37,745 bases of DNA from a virus. Its lineage: Duplodnaviria; Heunggongvirae; Uroviricota; Caudoviricetes. This document shows positions 62 to 8,574 of this stretch, one piece after another. The DNA is taken from the IMG/VR virus record IMGVR_UViG_2541047874_000005. One strand, 5' to 3'. Within the stretch, counting starts at the first letter, position 1. Each line of letters begins with the position of its first letter. The notes under the pieces were generated by a model. It saw only the letters and a program-made list of their open reading frames with translations, made no database searches and was not told the origin of the DNA. The position numbers were made by a program, and so were the translations under genes.

Positions 62-310
62 ATGCGTATTGAAATCTGCATAGCCAAAGAAAAAATGACT
101 AAAATGCCAACCGGTGCTGTGGATGCGTTAAAGGAAGAATTAACCCGACGCATCAGTAAACGTTATGACGATGTAGAGGTGATCGTAAAAGCCACCAGCA
201 ACGATGGCCTTTCTGTTACGCGCACTGCCGATAAAGATTCAGCTAAAACTTTTGTTCAGGAAACTCTGAAAGATACCTGGGAGTCTGCTGACGAGTGGTT
301 TGTTCACTAA
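62..310 (+). CDS. dinI: DinI-family DNA-damage-inducible protein (RecA modulator)
   Basis: 82 aa; MRIE..IAK...LP.GA.DAL..EL.RRI and C-terminal [11 protein letters not shown] match my recollection of E. coli DinI over the full length; RBS GAGGG; preceded by two SOS boxes. Confidence 0.85.
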
Positions 311-427: not shown

Positions 428-715
428 TTAACGGATCAACATCCAGATCAGCAGACACGCCACCACCGGCACAGCAAAATCCATCAGGCTTGCTACATCC
501 CACGCGCGAGGATCAAAACCGCCCCACCACGGCATATTCATACGCTTGCCATGCCCGAACATTTCAATCCAGCGATATTCTGCCTGGGTGTGTTCACGCG
601 CAATGAAGAACGTACAACCGGCTATCGCTCCGTAAGCCCAGTTTCCGGTAAAAAGACCAACCAGAAACTGAGTGGCCACCGCACAAAGTGCATGGAACAC
701 CGGTGTTAAGTCCAT
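428..715 (-). CDS. Small integral membrane protein of unknown function, translationally coupled downstream of the tail fibre gene
   Basis: 95 aa with three hydrophobic segments; GGAGGA RBS 7 nt before ATG at 715, 2 nt after the tail fibre stop. No family recognised. Confidence 0.6.
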   Translation of the reverse strand: MDLTPVFHALCAVATQFLVGLFTGNWAYGAIAGCTFFIAREHTQAEYRWIEMFGHGKRMNMPWWGGFDPRAWDVASLMDFAVPVVACLLIWMLIR

Positions 716-717
716 AA

Positions 718-1233
718 TTATTCCTCCAGTAAATCAACACGGCGGGTAAGTGCGCTGATACTCTCTGTCAGCGCATCCACCTGGCTGACAACAGCACGCA
801 GACACCACCAGAGAAGCTCCTCTTTCCGGAAGCGATAACGGCTTCCTGCTTCGGTTGCAGGGCGAACAAGAACCCTTTCCGCCTGTCGGGTAAGCACACG
901 GGTTGTCCCGCTCAACAGCTCCCCTTCATCCGAATAAATCGCTGGCTGAACCGGAATATCTTCATACTCTTCCGGTATATCTTCGTACTGTGCCTCCTCC
1001 GCTTCCCACGAATCCAGACAAAATGCGCTGTATTTCCGCCAGTCCAGACCGTGTTTCTCCATCACGGCTATCGCGGCCTGGACTGTCGGCCCGGCGTGCA
1101 GACGCGCGTCCTCGCCCTCCTCCTCAATTCTCTGTAACCAGCGCCACACGCCCGGAAGCCGTGCTATTTCTGCAAATGCCGCGTTTTCGGCTGCCGTCGC
1201 ATCGCGCGGTGTATCCTTTAACGTCGCATCCGA
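718..1233 (-). other. Putative peptidase-S74-like autoproteolytic chaperone domain of the tail fibre (last ~171 aa)
   Basis: SDATLK begins at residue 781 (Ser codon TCG at 1233..1231 on minus strand); pattern S-D-x-x-L-K then hydrophobic helix and terminal heptad-like [17 protein letters not shown]. Confidence 0.45.
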
Positions 1234-3573
1234 CACAACGGTCGGCGAGTTGCAGAGATACACGCTCCGGAACGCTTTGTTGGGCGCACCCAGGTCGCTG
1301 GTATTGTTAACCGATGGCCGGAATGCACCGTTAATATCTGTATCCATCTGCATGAATGCAGTGCCGTCACTACGGGCTGCAATTACATAAGCGTCAGCAG
1401 AATCGTCATAAATACCCAGATTCCCGACTGTTGATACCTGGAAAGCTCCCGCCTTCAGCGTGGTGCTGATGGTCATGCGCTTCTGGGTTTCGTCATCCGA
1501 TTTAATATTCACGCCCTGCAGGTATGCCACATTCCAGCGATTTGGCGATGACCCCAGATTCATTGCCTTGTCCTGGTCGGGATGAAATGACGGCGAGACC
1601 GGACTCAATAATACAGACCAGGTTTCACTGCCATCGGTGCAATAAAGCCTTGTGCGTCCCGCCGACTGAGTATCGTTCATTGAGTAAAGGTTAATCCCGC
1701 CACCGCTCAACAAATCCACGTCAGCGCGTATTTCCAGACAATCGTGCACGGCGTTCAGTCGGTGTTTCCACTGAACGTAGCGGCCTGTGTATTCTCCGGT
1801 TCGGAACGCATCCCCGAACAAACGAAAAACAGCAGCAGAAGTGTCTGTATCCGGAGCCTCCTTTCTGACCTCAAATAACGGGCGATGCGAGCGCAGATTC
1901 TGCTCATAGGCTGCCACCTGGAAGTCTTCATTGGGTGACAGGGCAATATTTACAGCATTGGGACTCAGAAAAAGGCTGGCATGGCTGTCAGGAAACGCCA
2001 CGCCGGAGTCCACCAGATAGCCTGTGCCGTCGTAAGCCTCCACGGAAACCACAGCTTTGCTGCGTTTTGTCGCCACGCCACACGTATAAGACTTCGTGGC
2101 ATCATATTTCGTTGCAGCCGCCGTTCCATATGCTGTAGGCGTCCAGTAAGATGGATTCACCGGGGAACGGCCAGAAAAATTTGTTGCACGTGCTGCAAAG
2201 TATGCCCCCTCAAAAGAAACCACATCGGCTGTCTGACACCAGAAATCCATATCGAGCAGATACAGTTTTCCGTTATGGAGAGCCAGCCCTTCGGCTTCCT
2301 GCAAAACGGGATACCCCAGCTCTGCATTCCCCAGCATTTTCTGGCGGCCATACCTGGCACGAACGCCATCCACATTGAACTGTCTGACAACTTCGCCCGT
2401 TGACAGGTTATATACAACAATGCGGTGAGTCAGAAATACGCCTGTATAACCGTAATAAGCAAACAGATAATGACCATCGCTGGCCATCCCCTGAAATGCC
2501 TGCGACACCATTGGCTGAGTGGACAGATAAATCCGGTGTTTAAACGTCAGAGAGGCGCGATCGAAAACATAAACTGTGCGGCGATCATCCCTGTTGTAAT
2601 GAAGATGAACTGCTTCATTACTTGACTGAACAATCAACAGGCTTCCGTCTGCCGACAATGCCACCGTTATAATTTCATCCCCGGTAAAAAAGTCAGAGGT
2701 GAAAATCTCCGTACGGGTGACATCTGTCAGACTGGTGTCAGCCCCATTCCAGTTGATGATATTCACACCCTTGCCGTCAGCGGTCGGGGTATACAGCATC
2801 ACGCGACCGTCTTCACATACAGCCCCGATACTCTGGTGACCAATATCAGCGAAAACGGGAGAAAACGAAATGACCGTCGGGTTTTCGTTTTCTCCGTCAG
2901 GGTTAAATGTCGTTTCAACAATCCTTACGCCACCCGATACAGGCTGATGCAGAAACATTCTGGTTCCCTGCGGCGTATCACAGATACAGAACCCCTGGCT
3001 CATATTATCCGCGCCGTCAAAAATACCGGCGTAGTCGATATCATGAATTACTTTATGCTGGAGGGCGTCGTAATCAATGATGTCGCGGCGCAGAGAAATA
3101 TCCGCCGATCCATCAAACTCAACACCGTCAATCCTGACTGGCGTCTTAAGCTTTGATGCGGTAGCTGCGTTACCGTCCAGTTCACCAGCAACACCACCAT
3201 TGAAACTCTGCCTGCCGCTCCACGTATTTTCTGTGCTTAATAGTGGGATCTTTTCACCGCTGCTTCCTGTCTCTCTTAAACCAAGATTTTCGAGAGCAGT
3301 TTTCACTGTGCCATCCAATTTGATGTCGCCAAACGGATTCTTGCGGCTTAACAGCAGCGAACGAAGCGCGGTAAGCAGCTGGTCATGCCGCCCCTTCTCC
3401 AGGCTGGCACCGGATGCTTCCACAACACTGCAAAGCTCTTCCTGCAACATGTCAAAGTAGTCATCATCCAGATCGGTGGCAGGCGTACCGGTCTGGGGGT
3501 TGCCACGGGTAAAACCGTTCTTACCCGCGCCGAACTTATCCTTCTGCGCGGTTTTCGTGTCTATACGATGCAT
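718..3573 (-). CDS. Tail fibre / receptor-binding protein with C-terminal S74-like intramolecular chaperone domain
   Basis: 951 aa; N-terminus [26 protein letters not shown]...[12 protein letters not shown] is the conserved phage tail-fibre N-terminal anchor; sits after the gp48-like gene as in Mu; C-terminus has SDATLK (Ser/Lys dyad spacing), [17 protein letters not shown] and a terminal coiled coil. Confidence 0.85.
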
Positions 3574-3576
3574 GGA

Positions 3577-4161
3577 TTACTCCGGATATTTAAAAATTAC
3601 GTAGGTATGCGACGGGCAGAGTTTGTTAAGCACGCACTCGACAACGGTGTCGCCCCAGATACGCAATGTGGAATTACAGGGATCACCACATGTCATCCAG
3701 GTGGTGTTGGTGGCGGCTGGCATGTTGACCTGCCAGTAATACCGCCATTCCGGCGCATTCACCGCGTCAGTACAGGCAGATGAGCAGGTGAAAGTGCTTT
3801 TGTCGTATCGCGTGATGGTAGCGTCTGGTCTGCCCAGGGCAGCAAGCTGTGCAAGGTAAAAATCCTCATTGATGCCGCCCGCCAGGTTAACCTTCGCATC
3901 CAGTCGTTGCTGACGCTGGCGAAGGGTCTGTGTCCCTGCGGGAATACATTCATCCGGCAGGCCGCACAGACGCTCCCAGCGATTTATCAGTTCGGTGGTG
4001 GTGCGCGGATCCAGCTCCCGCATCAGGGCATCCGCACGCTGATGAACGCGGGTTAATGACGGTGCCGCACCGGCAATCGCCGGATCGCTAGCTGACCACG
4101 CCGGACCGGGCGGCAACAGTGCCGATAACAGGCGGATGTAATCATCGTTTGTCACGTCCAT
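3577..4161 (-). CDS. Mu gp48-like baseplate/tail protein (DUF2313, YmfQ-like)
   Basis: 194 aa; position between J-like baseplate gene and tail fibre matches Mu gp48 / e14 YmfQ; Cys-rich C-terminus. Confidence 0.65.
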
Positions 4162-5210
4162 GAAATCGTCCCCAGAACCGCCAGCTCATTTTTCGCAATG
4201 GAGATATTGTCCACCGGTGCAAACAACTGATGGCTGTATTCCCCGTTCGCACCGGAAATCGCCTCACTGATACGCGATACCTTCAGTTCTCCCTGCGGAT
4301 AACCATCACGCAGCAGGAACGAACGCAACTCTGCGGTAATGGCAGCCCGTATTTCTGGTGTGTCCGGCGTCACGCGGATATGAAAATCCACCGTATGTGC
4401 CACCGGCCTGAATACATACAAATCAGAGCCTGCCACCGGGGCCAGTGGCTCAATGTGTTGTCTTGCCGCCGTTTCCGTTGATTCTTCCGGAATGGGATTA
4501 ATCAGGTCACTGCTGGCAATCATCACACCGACAGTTCCCGTTCCCATCCAGTGACGGTATGTCCATGCGCGGGTAATGCCTGGCACTTCTTTAGCCCAGA
4601 CAACATAGTCCCCGTCAGCCCCGCCCTGAGGCGTCCAGTAATACCGCTCAATGACGCGGGCGCGCCACGTTTCCAGCTCTTCAGTATCAAATCCACCTGT
4701 CAGGGTATCTGCCACGCCAGAAGACGGCAGACCATTAACCGGCGTGACCAGGATTAATGACGTACCGTCGTCAGCGTTACCGACCGCGCCTGCACTTGAG
4801 CAGGCGATCGGCACGCGCAGGACACCACCGGAGCTGGTTGCATCGGCAGTTGCCGTGTACTGAACCAGGTCATCGCGCTGAATAACACTCCCGGCAGTCA
4901 CCTTCAGGCCATCGCTGACACCTTCCCAGCGCATATACCCGCTGGCAGCCGTGCCCCCCTTGCGCGGACACCGTTTCATCGCAGCATGTCGCGCCAGCCA
5001 GGACTCATCGCACAGGTCAGGCAGCATGTTCATTGCCAGATAATCGATGTACCCGTAAACCGTATGCAGCGCCGCCGCATACACCTTTGCCCGCACGTCT
5101 TCATCCATGCGCCGGAGCGTGTCGCTGACGTCCAGCCTGGCGAATAAATCGTTACGGAGCATACTGATATTTTCTGCCAGCGTCGGGCGCTGAAATTCAC
5201 TGTCCGCCAT
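4152..5210 (-). CDS. Baseplate J-like protein (Mu gp47-like)
   Basis: 352 aa; size and position in the gp45-46-47-48 order of Mu-type baseplates. Confidence 0.75.
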
Positions 5211-5625
5211 GCGTTATCGCACTCCACAGATCATCAAAAGAAATCATTATCGGTCCGTCACGACGCCAGAGGGTGATACTGTTACCCAGCTCATTAATCC
5301 CGGTGCGGCGGATATCCAGATCAATACGGGACACCACGCCGTCATCAATCATCCATTGCAGGCATTCGCGGATATACCCCCTTACCGTCTGCACCAACTG
5401 ATTGGTCAGTTTGCTGCGCTGAAGCAGCCACAGCCGGGAGCCGTAACGGTCATTCTGTACCGCAGGCCAGGTATCCCCCCACCATCCCATCGGGACGTCG
5501 GCATTGTCATCAGGCTCCGCCCGCCGCCAGGTAAAAAGGGAAATCACCACGGCGCGGGTCAGCGGATCCAGCGGTGCGCTGGCGCAGGTGCGTTTACCGT
5601 TCACCGTCAGCCACAGTTCCATCAT
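5197..5625 (-). CDS. Mu gp46-like baseplate protein
   Basis: 142 aa; position between V-like spike and J-like protein; overlapping start/stop with neighbours. Confidence 0.6.
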   Translation of the reverse strand: MMELWLTVNGKRTCASAPLDPLTRAVVISLFTWRRAEPDDNADVPMGWWGDTWPAVQNDRYGSRLWLLQRSKLTNQLVQTVRGYIRECLQWMIDDGVVSRIDLDIRRTGINELGNSITLWRRDGPIMISFDDLWSAITHGGQ

Positions 5626-6170
5626 GCCTCCATCGCTTTATCAGGTTTGTCGGTGTTACTGCCCTGACCGTTTTCTCTGTGACGATGCTCGTTATAGGCA
5701 AGCCGCATCGCTGACATGGTGGTGCCGCCGGAGTCGCACAGGTCTTTCACCTGTCCTGTCACTTCCAGGTCCATTTCAAAACGTGCCTTAGGCGCATTGC
5801 GAAACGTGATCGTTTTACCTGCACCGTCCACCACGATCCCCTCCCGGGTCAGCGTCACGGACTGCCCCTGATCGTCATAGACAGCCACCTCCCCCGTTTG
5901 CAGCCCTTTCAGGCGGTAGCGACGGTCCGACACCGTAACAACCACCGCATGAGAACGGTCGCCATCCGGAAACAACACCACCGCTTCCGCACCGCTGTTT
6001 GCCCTTGCGGTAAAACCGTAGGGTTCAAGATGTTCAACCCCGGCTTTGGGTTCACCGGCAATCAGGGACACATCCACGGTCTGACATTTCGTGGCGGCAC
6101 TGATGCTTTTCACTACGGCCCGCCCAATCAGGCCGAGGAGTTGTCGCTGCATGGCTTCAATCGCCCTCAT
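5622..6170 (-). CDS. Baseplate assembly protein V-like / Mu gp45-like spike
   Basis: 182 aa; size and position after the gpP-like hub gene. Confidence 0.65.
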   Translation of the reverse strand: MRAIEAMQRQLLGLIGRAVVKSISAATKCQTVDVSLIAGEPKAGVEHLEPYGFTARANSGAEAVVLFPDGDRSHAVVVTVSDRRYRLKGLQTGEVAVYDDQGQSVTLTREGIVVDGAGKTITFRNAPKARFEMDLEVTGQVKDLCDSGGTTMSAMRLAYNEHRHRENGQGSNTDKPDKAMEA

Positions 6171-7249
6171 CAGAACGGGTCCTCCTGTACTCTGGCTTTT
6201 TTCTTTTTCCGCGCGCCGGGGTCTTCGGGTTCAGGCAGATAAGCATCAGGCGGGCCGACACGGATTTCCGTCAGGGTGCCGTTCTGATCCTGAGTAAACG
6301 TGACTTCCGAGACAAGCAGTTCGGTATTGTCAAAACCACAGACCGGATCAAAGACAATCACCCGCTGGTTGGGCTGCCACAGCGTACCGTTACCCTGTCG
6401 CCAGCCCTGCACCACATAGGTGGTTTCATCCGTCCGCGCCGCCCGTTGTCGGGCTTCAAAGTCAGCACGCGCAATACAGCCTGCCCCCGTAGCCTGCCCT
6501 GTCTGCCTGATATACATCGGACGGTAACGGGCAATAAATGCGTCCTCTGTGCGGGCCCGCAGCGCGGTGGTGGTGGCCTCACCGAAATCATCGTCGTTTC
6601 CGGCACGCTGCCCCGCCACCTGGTAAACAGAAAACCGCTCCCGGATACTCTTCTCCGTATCACAGGAAAGGATATTTTCCCCAAGTACCAGCGCGGTATG
6701 TGCCCGCGTTGAGCCAATACCGCCAATCACCAGCCTGCCGTGCGGGTCGTCGTAAGCCAGTGTCTGCTGCTGACCGAGTATTTTGTTGATCACCTCAATC
6801 ACCGTTTCGCCGTGATCAGGCTGGACATCAGGAATAGCACCCGACGGCGCACCATTGTTCACCACCTCAATGCCGAAAGGCGCAGCAAGCGCCTGCGCAA
6901 TCTGTACCAGCGATCGTCCGTTAAACTGTGTCGGTTCAGCTGCACAGTCAATCAGGTCAGCGGTCAGACTACGTCCGGCAATACCGGTGCTGACCGAACG
7001 GGCATCGTAACGAACGGGGGTCGCCTCCACCCAGCCAGTGATCACCAGCTCATCACCAATCAGCACTTCCACTTTTGAACCGTTTTTAATGCGCGGCTGA
7101 AGCGTGGTGATACCCTCATCTCCCGGCCACTGGCGGGTGATCTCCACACTGAAATCCCGCGCCAGCCGTTCAATACCGGCACCGATGCGCACCGATGTCC
7201 AGCCATTCCACTCCCGGCCATTTACCCGTAGCGTGACATTGTCGTTCAT
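6170..7249 (-). CDS. Mu gpP-like (late control D-like) baseplate hub / tail protein
   Basis: 359 aa; follows the DNA-circulation (gpN-like) gene as in Mu; C-terminal lysine-rich tail. Confidence 0.7.
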   Translation of the reverse strand: MNDNVTLRVNGREWNGWTSVRIGAGIERLARDFSVEITRQWPGDEGITTLQPRIKNGSKVEVLIGDELVITGWVEATPVRYDARSVSTGIAGRSLTADLIDCAAEPTQFNGRSLVQIAQALAAPFGIEVVNNGAPSGAIPDVQPDHGETVIEVINKILGQQQTLAYDDPHGRLVIGGIGSTRAHTALVLGENILSCDTEKSIRERFSVYQVAGQRAGNDDDFGEATTTALRARTEDAFIARYRPMYIRQTGQATGAGCIARADFEARQRAARTDETTYVVQGWRQGNGTLWQPNQRVIVFDPVCGFDNTELLVSEVTFTQDQNGTLTEIRVGPPDAYLPEPEDPGARKKKKARVQEDPF

Positions 7250-8574
7250 TGCACTGGCACCTTCAGAGGGATCACCGGCACAAAGCCGGGATGCGTAATG
7301 GCATTACGCCGGATAATGTCCGCGTCACGCGCCGCGTTATCAAACCAGGTCGCCGCCAGCACCAGCGCGGGTAAAACCTCATCCGGCGTGCGCTGAATGA
7401 TCCGTGCAGACTGTTCAAGGCGCGTGTTGATATCCGCATTCAGATCTGCTTTCACCCGGCGCAGCGCCAGAAACAGCGCATCACTGGTTGTACGGGACAA
7501 CTCCTTATCAATTGCCGTATTCAGTGTGTCGCGAATGTCAGTCAGTTCTTCCCACGTTGGCAGATCAACCGTGTTTTTCACCGCCGGTGCATTGTTCAGT
7601 GCCGGATGCGTAACGGAAGGCCAGCCGGTGCTCTGCGCGGGTGTTGTTGACTGCCCCACTGCGGCATTCTGCATCACCGCGGAAGTTGTTGGCGCAGGCA
7701 ATCGGGTTACGGCATACGCCGCTTCGCTGATTGCGGTCGTACGAAGGGTGCTGGCAACCACGTTACGCTGCTGCGTCGCCGTAGCGGTGGTTTTACTGTC
7801 CGTTTTCCAGACGCCGCGCGGTTGCAGATCGCTGCCGAGGCTGACACCGGAAAGCGTTTTGATCATGGTGACCAGGTCGCTGGCGTTACCATAAAGGCGT
7901 TTCCCGGTACGCCACATTTTCTGCACCTGCTCAACGAAATTTTTGCCTGACGATGGCGGCGGCAGAAGTACCGAGATATCCCCCTGCAACAGCCTGGCGG
8001 CATCCGATACGGCAGAATCCACCACTTTCATCGCATCAGAAACATACCCCAGCATTGTGCTGGCATTACCAACGACGTCGTTCTGCACAAAATCCGCCAC
8101 GCTATCGATACTGAAACCGCTGAAGCTGTCACTGATGCAGTCATCCAGTGCAGAACAGGATGACATCAGCGTCTGCGCCGTCGCCGCACCTGATGTGGGG
8201 TAAGAGAGTTCTCCTGCTTCGACAAACTTCAGGTCAAAGCGGACAATACGCCCTTCACTTTTCGATGTGCTGACCCGAACTTCCCCGTCAACACAGACTT
8301 TCAGCTCACCGTATGTCGGATGGACAAGCGTGCCGGGACCGGGTTTATTCAGCGCGTCAATCAGGCGATCACGCTGGTCAAAGCAGTCATCTCCCACCAC
8401 ATAAGCTGTGATGGACGGGCGGAAAGTGACTTTTCCCAGGTCTTCGGTATAGGGCTTGTCGCGGTTCGGGTATTCGTGTGTTTCCACACGGCGACCAGTT
8501 CCCGCACTTTCTTCTTCAACCTTAAACGGTACGCCGCGAAATGACGCATCCTGAAGCCTGTCTTTCCACGTCAT
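7246..8574 (-). CDS. Mu gpN-like DNA circulation protein (tail/baseplate)
   Basis: 442 aa; N-terminus MTWKDRLQDASFRGVPFKVEEE...THEYPNRDKPYTEDLG resembles the Mu N family N-terminal domain; first gene after tape measure in Mu-type tails. Confidence 0.75.
   Translation of the reverse strand: MTWKDRLQDASFRGVPFKVEEESAGTGRRVETHEYPNRDKPYTEDLGKVTFRPSITAYVVGDDCFDQRDRLIDALNKPGPGTLVHPTYGELKVCVDGEVRVSTSKSEGRIVRFDLKFVEAGELSYPTSGAATAQTLMSSCSALDDCISDSFSGFSIDSVADFVQNDVVGNASTMLGYVSDAMKVVDSAVSDAARLLQGDISVLLPPPSSGKNFVEQVQKMWRTGKRLYGNASDLVTMIKTLSGVSLGSDLQPRGVWKTDSKTTATATQQRNVVASTLRTTAISEAAYAVTRLPAPTTSAVMQNAAVGQSTTPAQSTGWPSVTHPALNNAPAVKNTVDLPTWEELTDIRDTLNTAIDKELSRTTSDALFLALRRVKADLNADINTRLEQSARIIQRTPDEVLPALVLAATWFDNAARDADIIRRNAITHPGFVPVIPLKVPVQ

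Follow-up and report, generated by a model that had tools for sequence, protein, structure and literature searches.

The gene at 718..3573 of the window, a stretch of 37,745 nucleotides (nt) from a Caudoviricetes virus (IMG/VR record IMGVR_UViG_2541047874_000005), probably specifies the trimeric tailspike by which a contractile-tailed temperate phage of the SfII/SfV-like kind binds its receptor; the spike is composed of an anchor, a linker and a portable module with a propeller, a beta domain, a stalk and an S74 chaperone. It forms an uninterrupted open reading frame (ORF) of 951 amino acids (aa) on the minus strand with no internal stop, running from an ATG at 3573-3571 to a TAA at 720-718, and a GGAG Shine-Dalgarno sequence lies upstream of the start codon. 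Every part of the spike belongs to a described kind: the family is represented in PHROGs, and PF13884 is already annotated on the public protein cluster. The parts of the protein are as follows.

718..3573, minus strand: tailspike / receptor-binding protein, complete ORF; 951 aa; phrog_19921 'tail spike protein', 1858 bits
3271..3573, minus strand: N-terminal baseplate anchor of the StfP/YcfK/SfII short-tail-fibre type; residues 1-101; phrog_1396, phrog_2617, phrog_6683
3088..3270, minus strand: linker with a common tail-fibre motif, ending at the recombination junction; residues 102-162
2029..3087, minus strand: five-bladed beta-propeller, putative glycan-binding platform; residues 163-515; family-invariant Q193, H246, Q361, E426, E428
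2074..2220, minus strand: aromatic-rich insertion in or after blade 5, including SYWTPT; residues 452-500, from the alignment
1474..2028, minus strand: all-beta domain between propeller and stalk; residues 516-700
1234..1473, minus strand: stalk before the cleavage site, presumed trimeric beta-helix; residues 701-780; D760-L-G ... F768-R769-x-x-Y772 motif
1216..1233, minus strand: predicted Ser/Lys catalytic dyad S781-D-A-T-L-K786; predicted scissile bond V780|S781
721..1233, minus strand: Peptidase_S74 intramolecular chaperone, 171 aa; residues 781-951, with a coiled-coil helix at 917-950 (nt 724-825)

Propeller and beta domain of the central region

The structure of the protein was predicted with AlphaFold2 as a monomer, using an alignment of 90 sequences, and the predicted local distance difference test (pLDDT) score exceeded 90 across about residues 165-700. 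DSSP assignment on this model revealed five four-stranded blades (residues 195-237, 250-289, 301-350, 360-401, and 420-461), followed by all-beta segments to about residue 665 and then by short stalk strands. The strands of the all-beta domain lie at residues 551-665 (pLDDT ~85-97), and R616, G624, Y630, D634, and G674 of this domain are conserved in the family. The overall shape is that of a globular spike, not of a thin fibre. Comparison of the model by Foldseek returned staphylococcal receptor-binding proteins (RBPs), including 80alpha gp61 and the P68 fibre, with E values of ~1e-12, and the arrangement of five four-stranded blades was nearest to the platforms of phi11, P68, 80alpha, and NF5. 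A profile of the propeller only matched NF5 Gp17 (E 1.3e-3) and the P68 fibre (E 3e-3), and also 80alpha gp61 and phi11 Gp45. Based on the model and these matches, the central domain is read as a propeller that binds glycans, of the same type as the staphylococcal 'platform'.

Single-sequence searches of Pfam, NCBIfam, and PDB sequences with the central domain gave nothing significant; only profiles of the family and comparison of folds brought out the propeller relationship. When residues 165-780 were searched exhaustively with HMMER against 1.84 billion representatives, 144 clusters were recovered, of which 99 had E <=1e-10; most of the 144 cover residues ~184-705. The cluster of the full-length protein holds 609 member sequences, and residues 153-950 had already been filed in PHROGs under the spike family listed above. 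The first-pass annotation of this DNA, made from the sequence alone, had described a fibre whose central region (1233..2700, corresponding to residues 291-780) was rich in Gly, Tyr, and Asp, matched nothing recognisable, and probably determined receptor specificity. The likely role of the middle of the protein in specificity is supported by the present results, while the family of 144 clusters, its PHROGs entry, and a predicted structure that falls into a known receptor-binding fold overturn the statement that the region matches nothing. Regarding composition and extent, only Tyr (5.5%) is clearly raised within residues 291-780, which does not hold for Gly (7.3%) and Asp (7.1%), and the portable module starts earlier, at residue 163. 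The first-pass annotation also gave no strand for the gene.

Alignment of the family revealed that Q193, G194, H246, G269, G277, T280, Q361, G375, G393, Y408, E426, E428, G429, and W445 are invariant or nearly so. The insertion at residues 452-500 is missing in 2 of the 20 aligned homologues, and it may resemble small chitin- or carbohydrate-binding modules. In blades 1, 2, and 4 of the model, the innermost strands begin at or directly after Q193, H246, and Q361. The family motif 'a-l-Q-G' (F360-Q361-G362 in the window) aligns on M329-Q330 of phi11, so that Q330 corresponds to Q361 by alignment, while Q165 with Q193 and T211 with H246 are matched by position only. These phi11 residues belong to a cavity proposed to hold N-acetylglucosamine (GlcNAc), which is lined by Gln165, Thr211, Gln330, Met164, and Met329 (Koç et al., PMC4901313).

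The two ends of the spike

A hidden Markov model search revealed that residues 781-843 match Pfam PF13884 (Peptidase_S74) over profile positions 1-58 of 58, with 38.1 bits against a cut-off of 22 (E 1.9e-9). The SDATLK motif at residues 781-786 is the sole S-x4-K of the whole protein; shuffled protein sequences contained a mean of 2.2 such motifs and 90% of them had at least one, and thus the motif alone is within chance and the real evidence is the profile match. A phmmer search of PDB sequences retrieved T5 pb1 (4uw8; E 1.4e-14, residues 741-872), 7y5s, 6eu4, 9vvr, the K1F chaperone 3gw6, and the GA-1 chaperone 3gud, and with the family profile the matches to six solved chaperone-bearing proteins rose to E values of 1e-26 - 1e-38. 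In the ungapped alignment with T5 pb1, S781 is opposite position 1264 (Ala in 4uw8, the crystal of the S1264A mutant), and K786 is opposite K1269. A G-x-T-V-Q motif is common to T5 pb1 and the spike, and G828xxxQ832 is conserved in the family. In addition, the modelled domain matches the solved chaperone domains in its short helices, beta-hairpin 'tentacle', and C-terminal coiled coil; helix 917-950 carries a hydrophobic 4-3-4-3 heptad at positions 921/925/928/932/935/939/942/946/949. Upstream of the dyad, the stalk aligns with the pre-cleavage stalks of T5 pb1, 7y5s, 6eu4, and the endosialidases (4hiz, 3gvj).

In T5 pb1, Ser1264 and Lys1269 cut the Thr1263-Ser1264 bond and the serine departs with the chaperone (PMC4690869), and the same dyad logic was described for GA-1 gp12 and endosialidase (PMC3742440). 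By homology, cleavage is predicted at V780|S781; residues 1-780 would form the mature protein, and residues 781-951 would be released. Judged from the sequence, all catalytic and invariant residues of the spike are intact. In the spike of Vectrevirus R4596 (locus 2179-5262), the motif reads CDARLK as compared to SDATLK or SDxRLK elsewhere, with Cys in place of the nucleophilic Ser.

At the opposite end, residues 1-113 share 86% aa identity with the short tail fibres of SfI and SfIV, and the identity of the anchor to the fibres of SfII, SfIV, SfI, and vB_EcoM-689R6 is 74-95%. The DNA of residues 1-101 is present at 90-95% identity in 1491 of the 5426 complete Escherichia coli genomes searched (~27%), under names that include StfP and YcfK, while no Pfam or NCBIfam model matched these residues. 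The high N-terminal identity, together with the position directly after a gp48-like gene, identifies the anchor as one of the SfII/StfP/YcfK type. The linker region (~83-162) matches phrog_454, phrog_1833, and phrog_6722, and the stretch of anchor plus linker is covered as a whole in only 3 of the genomes.

For both ends, the first-pass annotation had anticipated these results. The conserved N-terminal anchor, the S74-like chaperone of about 171 aa with its Ser-x4-Lys motif, and the terminal coiled coil are all present as it described them, and its estimate of a mature end near residue 781 agrees with the mature C-terminus now predicted from the alignments at residue 780.

Exchange of the module and gene neighbourhood

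Identity profiles revealed a sharp junction at residue ~163, and by sequence comparison residues 163-951 are a portable module of ~790 residues. Identity to the proteins of P2-like prophages, Pollock, and R4596 begins only past residue ~162. In P2-like prophages of E. coli, the module is 98-100% identical at the nt level from residue ~163 to the stop codon and stands behind a PF12571 tail-collar anchor; in the N4-like phage Pollock, it shows 78% aa identity and stands behind PF18668; in R4596 and its relatives, it shows ~50% aa identity and follows an anchor of the T7 type (PF03906). The spike gene of Pollock (KM236242 locus, 4524-7364) is 55-80% identical to the window gene at the nt level, except for a patch of ~600 bp at codons ~540-740 (window ~1354-1954), which is 95-100% identical to the prophage allele. 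The GC content of this patch is 50.6%, compared to 34-38% in the rest of the gene and 36% in the phage genome, as if the lytic N4-like phage had recently acquired the patch from a prophage-type allele by recombination.

The module is carried by 87 of the 5426 genomes, REL606 and further E. coli B strains among them; it occurs both in O7 and in many non-O7 strains, as well as in the rough E. coli B lineage. The O7-type wzx gene is present in E. coli MIN14 (O7:H4), whose DNA is 100% identical to the window, and in the E. coli B lineage, and in total it was found in 95 genomes. The overlap was compared among the matches listed, that is 60 of the 87 carriers and ~80 of the 95 O7 genomes, and is therefore a lower bound: it comprises at least MIN14 and 11 clonal records of the B lineage, and none of the other 48 carriers. 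An exclusive link to the O7 antigen was rejected. In the E. coli B lineage (REL606, B, ATCC 11303, AS19), the module lies on a P2-like prophage (NC_012967.1 ~2106552-2107599); BL21-type records are in the list of O7 wzx genomes but not among the 60 of 87 module carriers listed.

A word-indexed profile search retrieved almost only near-identical E. coli fragments, and one distant family member was located on a metagenomic phage-like contig. In a homologue of 589 aa from a Logan assembly, which otherwise reads like the window protein, T, A, S, P, H, and R are widely replaced by I, V, L, F, Y, and C, as would be expected from C-to-T-converted DNA; it was judged a probable data artefact and excluded from the propeller alignment. 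Among the NCBI entries for P2-like spikes, dozens are marked 'partial' (540-740 aa) and end at contig edges, which suggests that short-read assemblies often break inside the P2-like spike gene.

The genes on either side of the spike gene are the following.

3577..4161, minus strand: Mu gp48-like baseplate gene; PF10076, E 7.6e-27; stop codon 3 nt before the spike ATG
428..715, minus strand: 95-aa predicted membrane protein; phrog_1443 (function unknown); 2 nt after the spike stop codon

Further upstream of the gp48-like gene are genes for baseplate J, gp46, gp45, gp44-like, DNA-circularisation, and tape-measure proteins, and over the 19 kb upstream of the spike, which hold tail and head genes, the nt identity to the Shigella phages SfII, SfI, SfIV, and SfV is 97%. 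In MIN14, the prophage adjoins dusA and a tyrosine integrase gene, both just outside the window, and it appears to be a dusA-adjacent, SfII-like prophage. A DinI-like gene (PF06183; window 62-310, plus strand) is located at the prophage end. The gtr/O-acetylase conversion genes, which in SfII lie between the fibre genes and the integrase end, are absent from this prophage.

A separate tail-fibre assembly gene (tfa) is absent; the 95-aa membrane ORF comes after the spike gene and occupies the slot of the SfII tail-fibre assembly gene. This ORF had no Pfam or NCBIfam match. In a P2-like prophage, a copy with 93% identity comes after this spike module (locus 3714-3998), and copies with ~90% identity are located behind side-tail-fibre genes in lambdoid phages, such as phage 21. 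The side tail fibre preceding the copy in phage 21 lacks S74, and a role of the ORF as an obligatory partner of S74 spikes was thus rejected.

The NCBI Prokaryotic Genome Annotation Pipeline (PGAP) record of the identical DNA (NZ_CP069646.1 2613275-2616130) breaks up the intact ORF of 951 codons: residues 1-101 are called an 'incomplete stfP' pseudogene, a coding sequence (CDS) of 761 aa starts from M191, in propeller blade 1, and residues 102-190 are left unannotated.

Proposed mode of action, alternatives, and known relatives

According to the proposed mechanism, residues 1-101 would dock the spike on a Mu-type baseplate, as suggested by their conservation. The propeller would present a central pocket lined by Q193, H246, and Q361, with E426-x-E428 nearby, and would most likely bind a surface glycan, as proposed for the platform of phi11 Gp45. 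By comparison with K1F endosialidase, T5 pb1, and GA-1 gp12, the C-terminal coiled coil of the chaperone may nucleate trimerisation of the stalk; once the trimer is folded, S781 and K786 would cut V780|S781, freeing the 171-residue chaperone and leaving a mature spike of 780 residues. As help with folding is built in, the module would need no separate tail-fibre assembly gene. Recombination at the junction near residue 163 has moved the module between phages of the Mu-like, P2-like, N4-like, and T7-like types.

Several observations weigh against this reading. Pfam PF21311 (Phage_RBD_prop) stayed below its cut-off of 23.7 bits both for the window protein (11.5 bits, E 0.22) and for the R4596 orthologue (16 bits, E 0.0098), and homology to the staphylococcal platform therefore rests on the fold and on weak profile matches (E ~1e-3). 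The binding of GlcNAc in the phi11 cavity was modelled, not observed (PMC4901313), and the lysogens checked do not share one O type. AlphaFold2 confidence was low at the N-terminus, and pLDDT was below 50 for residues 739-780, and the model is a monomer, so that the trimer geometry and the position of the sensor arginine are tentative; such a low score is expected of a segment that folds only in the trimer. The sensor arginine of T5, R1250, aligns with A767, while R769 sits at the position found in 6eu4-type spikes and is a candidate sensor arginine.

The propeller could instead be a polysaccharide depolymerase (glycosidase, lyase or esterase) acting on O-antigen or capsule, with E426 and E428, together with H246, as catalytic residues, but this is somewhat unlikely. 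For its nearest relatives, the RBPs of phi11, P68, 80alpha, and NF5, binding is the only known function, and the enzymatic role suggested for phi11 has not been confirmed. The EPEG motif is also kept in NF5 Gp17 and is thus not specific to a Gram-negative depolymerase, and no sequence match to CAZy-type Pfam families was obtained. In the model, E426 and E428 are at the A-B turn whereas Q193, H246, and Q361 are at the starts of the A strands, and the two groups may be on opposite faces. For a right-handed beta-helix depolymerase of the P22 or pectate-lyase type, no Pfam beta-helix or pectate-lyase match was found; the model consists of a propeller and beta sandwiches, and beta-helix enzymes were absent among its top fold matches. 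An endosialidase-type (GH58) spike degrading polysialic acid is extremely improbable: the S74 chaperone and the similarity of the stalk to endosialidases, along with a weak match to PF12219 at residues 662-687 (E 0.028, below cut-off), point toward it, but the model has five blades and not six, no Pfam family of the endosialidase propeller or barrel matched, and endosialidases ranked far below the staphylococcal RBPs in both fold searches, with similarity confined to stalk and chaperone.

It is also unlikely that the distal beta domain and stalk tip (~516-780), unmasked by the exit of the chaperone, are the main seat of host specificity, with the propeller in a secondary or structural role. 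Adsorption of T5 is blocked by the processed fibre only, suggesting a site uncovered by chaperone release (PMC4690869), and the patch in Pollock shows that this segment is exchanged on its own. However, the patch may be a mere recombination tract, the predicted binding sites of P68 and phi11 are on the platform and not on the tower, and the parts most variable against Pollock and R4596 are blades 2-3 and the 481-500 insert (45-50% aa identity), as expected of a specificity surface. The pseudogene call for residues 1-101 and the separate CDS from M191 would fit a decayed prophage remnant, or a chimeric pseudogene, with no functional spike; this is very improbable, given 951 continuous codons, a Shine-Dalgarno sequence, coupling to the upstream baseplate gene, a structural module 97% identical to that of functional Shigella phages, a cluster of 609 members, and intact catalytic and invariant residues. 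The start assigned at M191, moreover, would cut into propeller blade 1. A receptor-binding, self-chaperoned spike is the preferred reading. With low confidence, it may be proposed that residues 163-700 form an uncharacterised class of Gram-negative phage receptor-binding domain, whose five-bladed propeller shares distant homology with the teichoic-acid-binding platform of staphylococcal phages, with the invariant Q/H/Q and E-x-E residues as a putative pocket, representing either a new family of polysaccharide-cleaving enzymes or a domain recognising a glycan common to many E. coli O types.

Comparison with known systems showed that GA-1 gp12 (Q9FZW3; chaperone PDB 3GUD) resembles the spike in its post-anchor architecture, that is a propeller-containing body, beta domains, and S74 with a Ser/Lys dyad. 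Foldseek against BFVD matched it with E 3e-43 over 818 columns, the profile match to 3gud reached E 1e-32, and tblastn gave 22.6% identity over residues 184-698. In contrast to the spike, GA-1 gp12 belongs to a Gram-positive phi29-like podovirus, is attached to the neck, has another anchor and a length of 739 aa (951 in the spike), and shares ~20% identity; no solved structure of its body was found. The platform RBPs compared, namely phi11 Gp45 (5EFV), 80alpha gp61 (6V8I), the P68 tail fibre (6IAB), and NF5 Gp17 (9M7X), together with PF21311, differ in having a coiled-coil stem and a 'tower' and in lacking an S74 chaperone. They bind GlcNAc carried by wall teichoic acid, a polymer that E. coli does not have.

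The K1F endosialidase endoNF (3GVJ, 3GW6) likewise combines an anchor, a propeller, a stalk, and a self-cleaving S74 domain, and its stalk and chaperone are homologous to those of the spike, whereas its propeller is six-bladed with a nested barrel, is a GH58 enzyme, and showed no detectable sequence similarity to the spike propeller. T5 pb1 (4UW8) is the best sequence match for residues 741-872, with the dyad aligned residue for residue, and differs in its bullet-shaped tip without propeller and in the alignment position of its sensor Arg1250. The proteins Pollock gp75 (AIX12434) and R4596 gp38 (QBQ76601) are true orthologues of residues 163-951 with the same S74 domain and different anchors. 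Phages SfII, SfV, SfI, and SfIV share the backbone (97% nt identity), the position after the gp48-like gene, and the N-terminal ~110 residues; where SfII has a short tail fibre of 216 aa and a separate assembly chaperone of 144 aa, the prophage has a self-chaperoned module of 790 residues that replaces both. The literature searched contained neither an explicit link of the E. coli spike family to the staphylococcal platform domain nor any functional study of the family, including Pollock gp75, R4596 gp38, and their relatives.

The locus offers a lesson for annotation, since the NCBI pipeline turns one intact mosaic spike gene into a pseudogene plus a truncated CDS; otherwise it adds to the known cases of tail-fibre genes exchanged as modules. 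Among phage spikes, receptor-binding proteins of the propeller type form a recognised and poorly understood minority, and according to a 2025 survey the properties of phage propellers are still poorly understood (PMC12491483). The module described here is convenient for their study, being self-folding, ~790 residues long, carried on four unrelated phage chassis, and present in laboratory strains of E. coli B. It could become a test case for the recognition of Gram-negative surfaces by propellers and a ready-made cassette for retargeting phages or tailocins.

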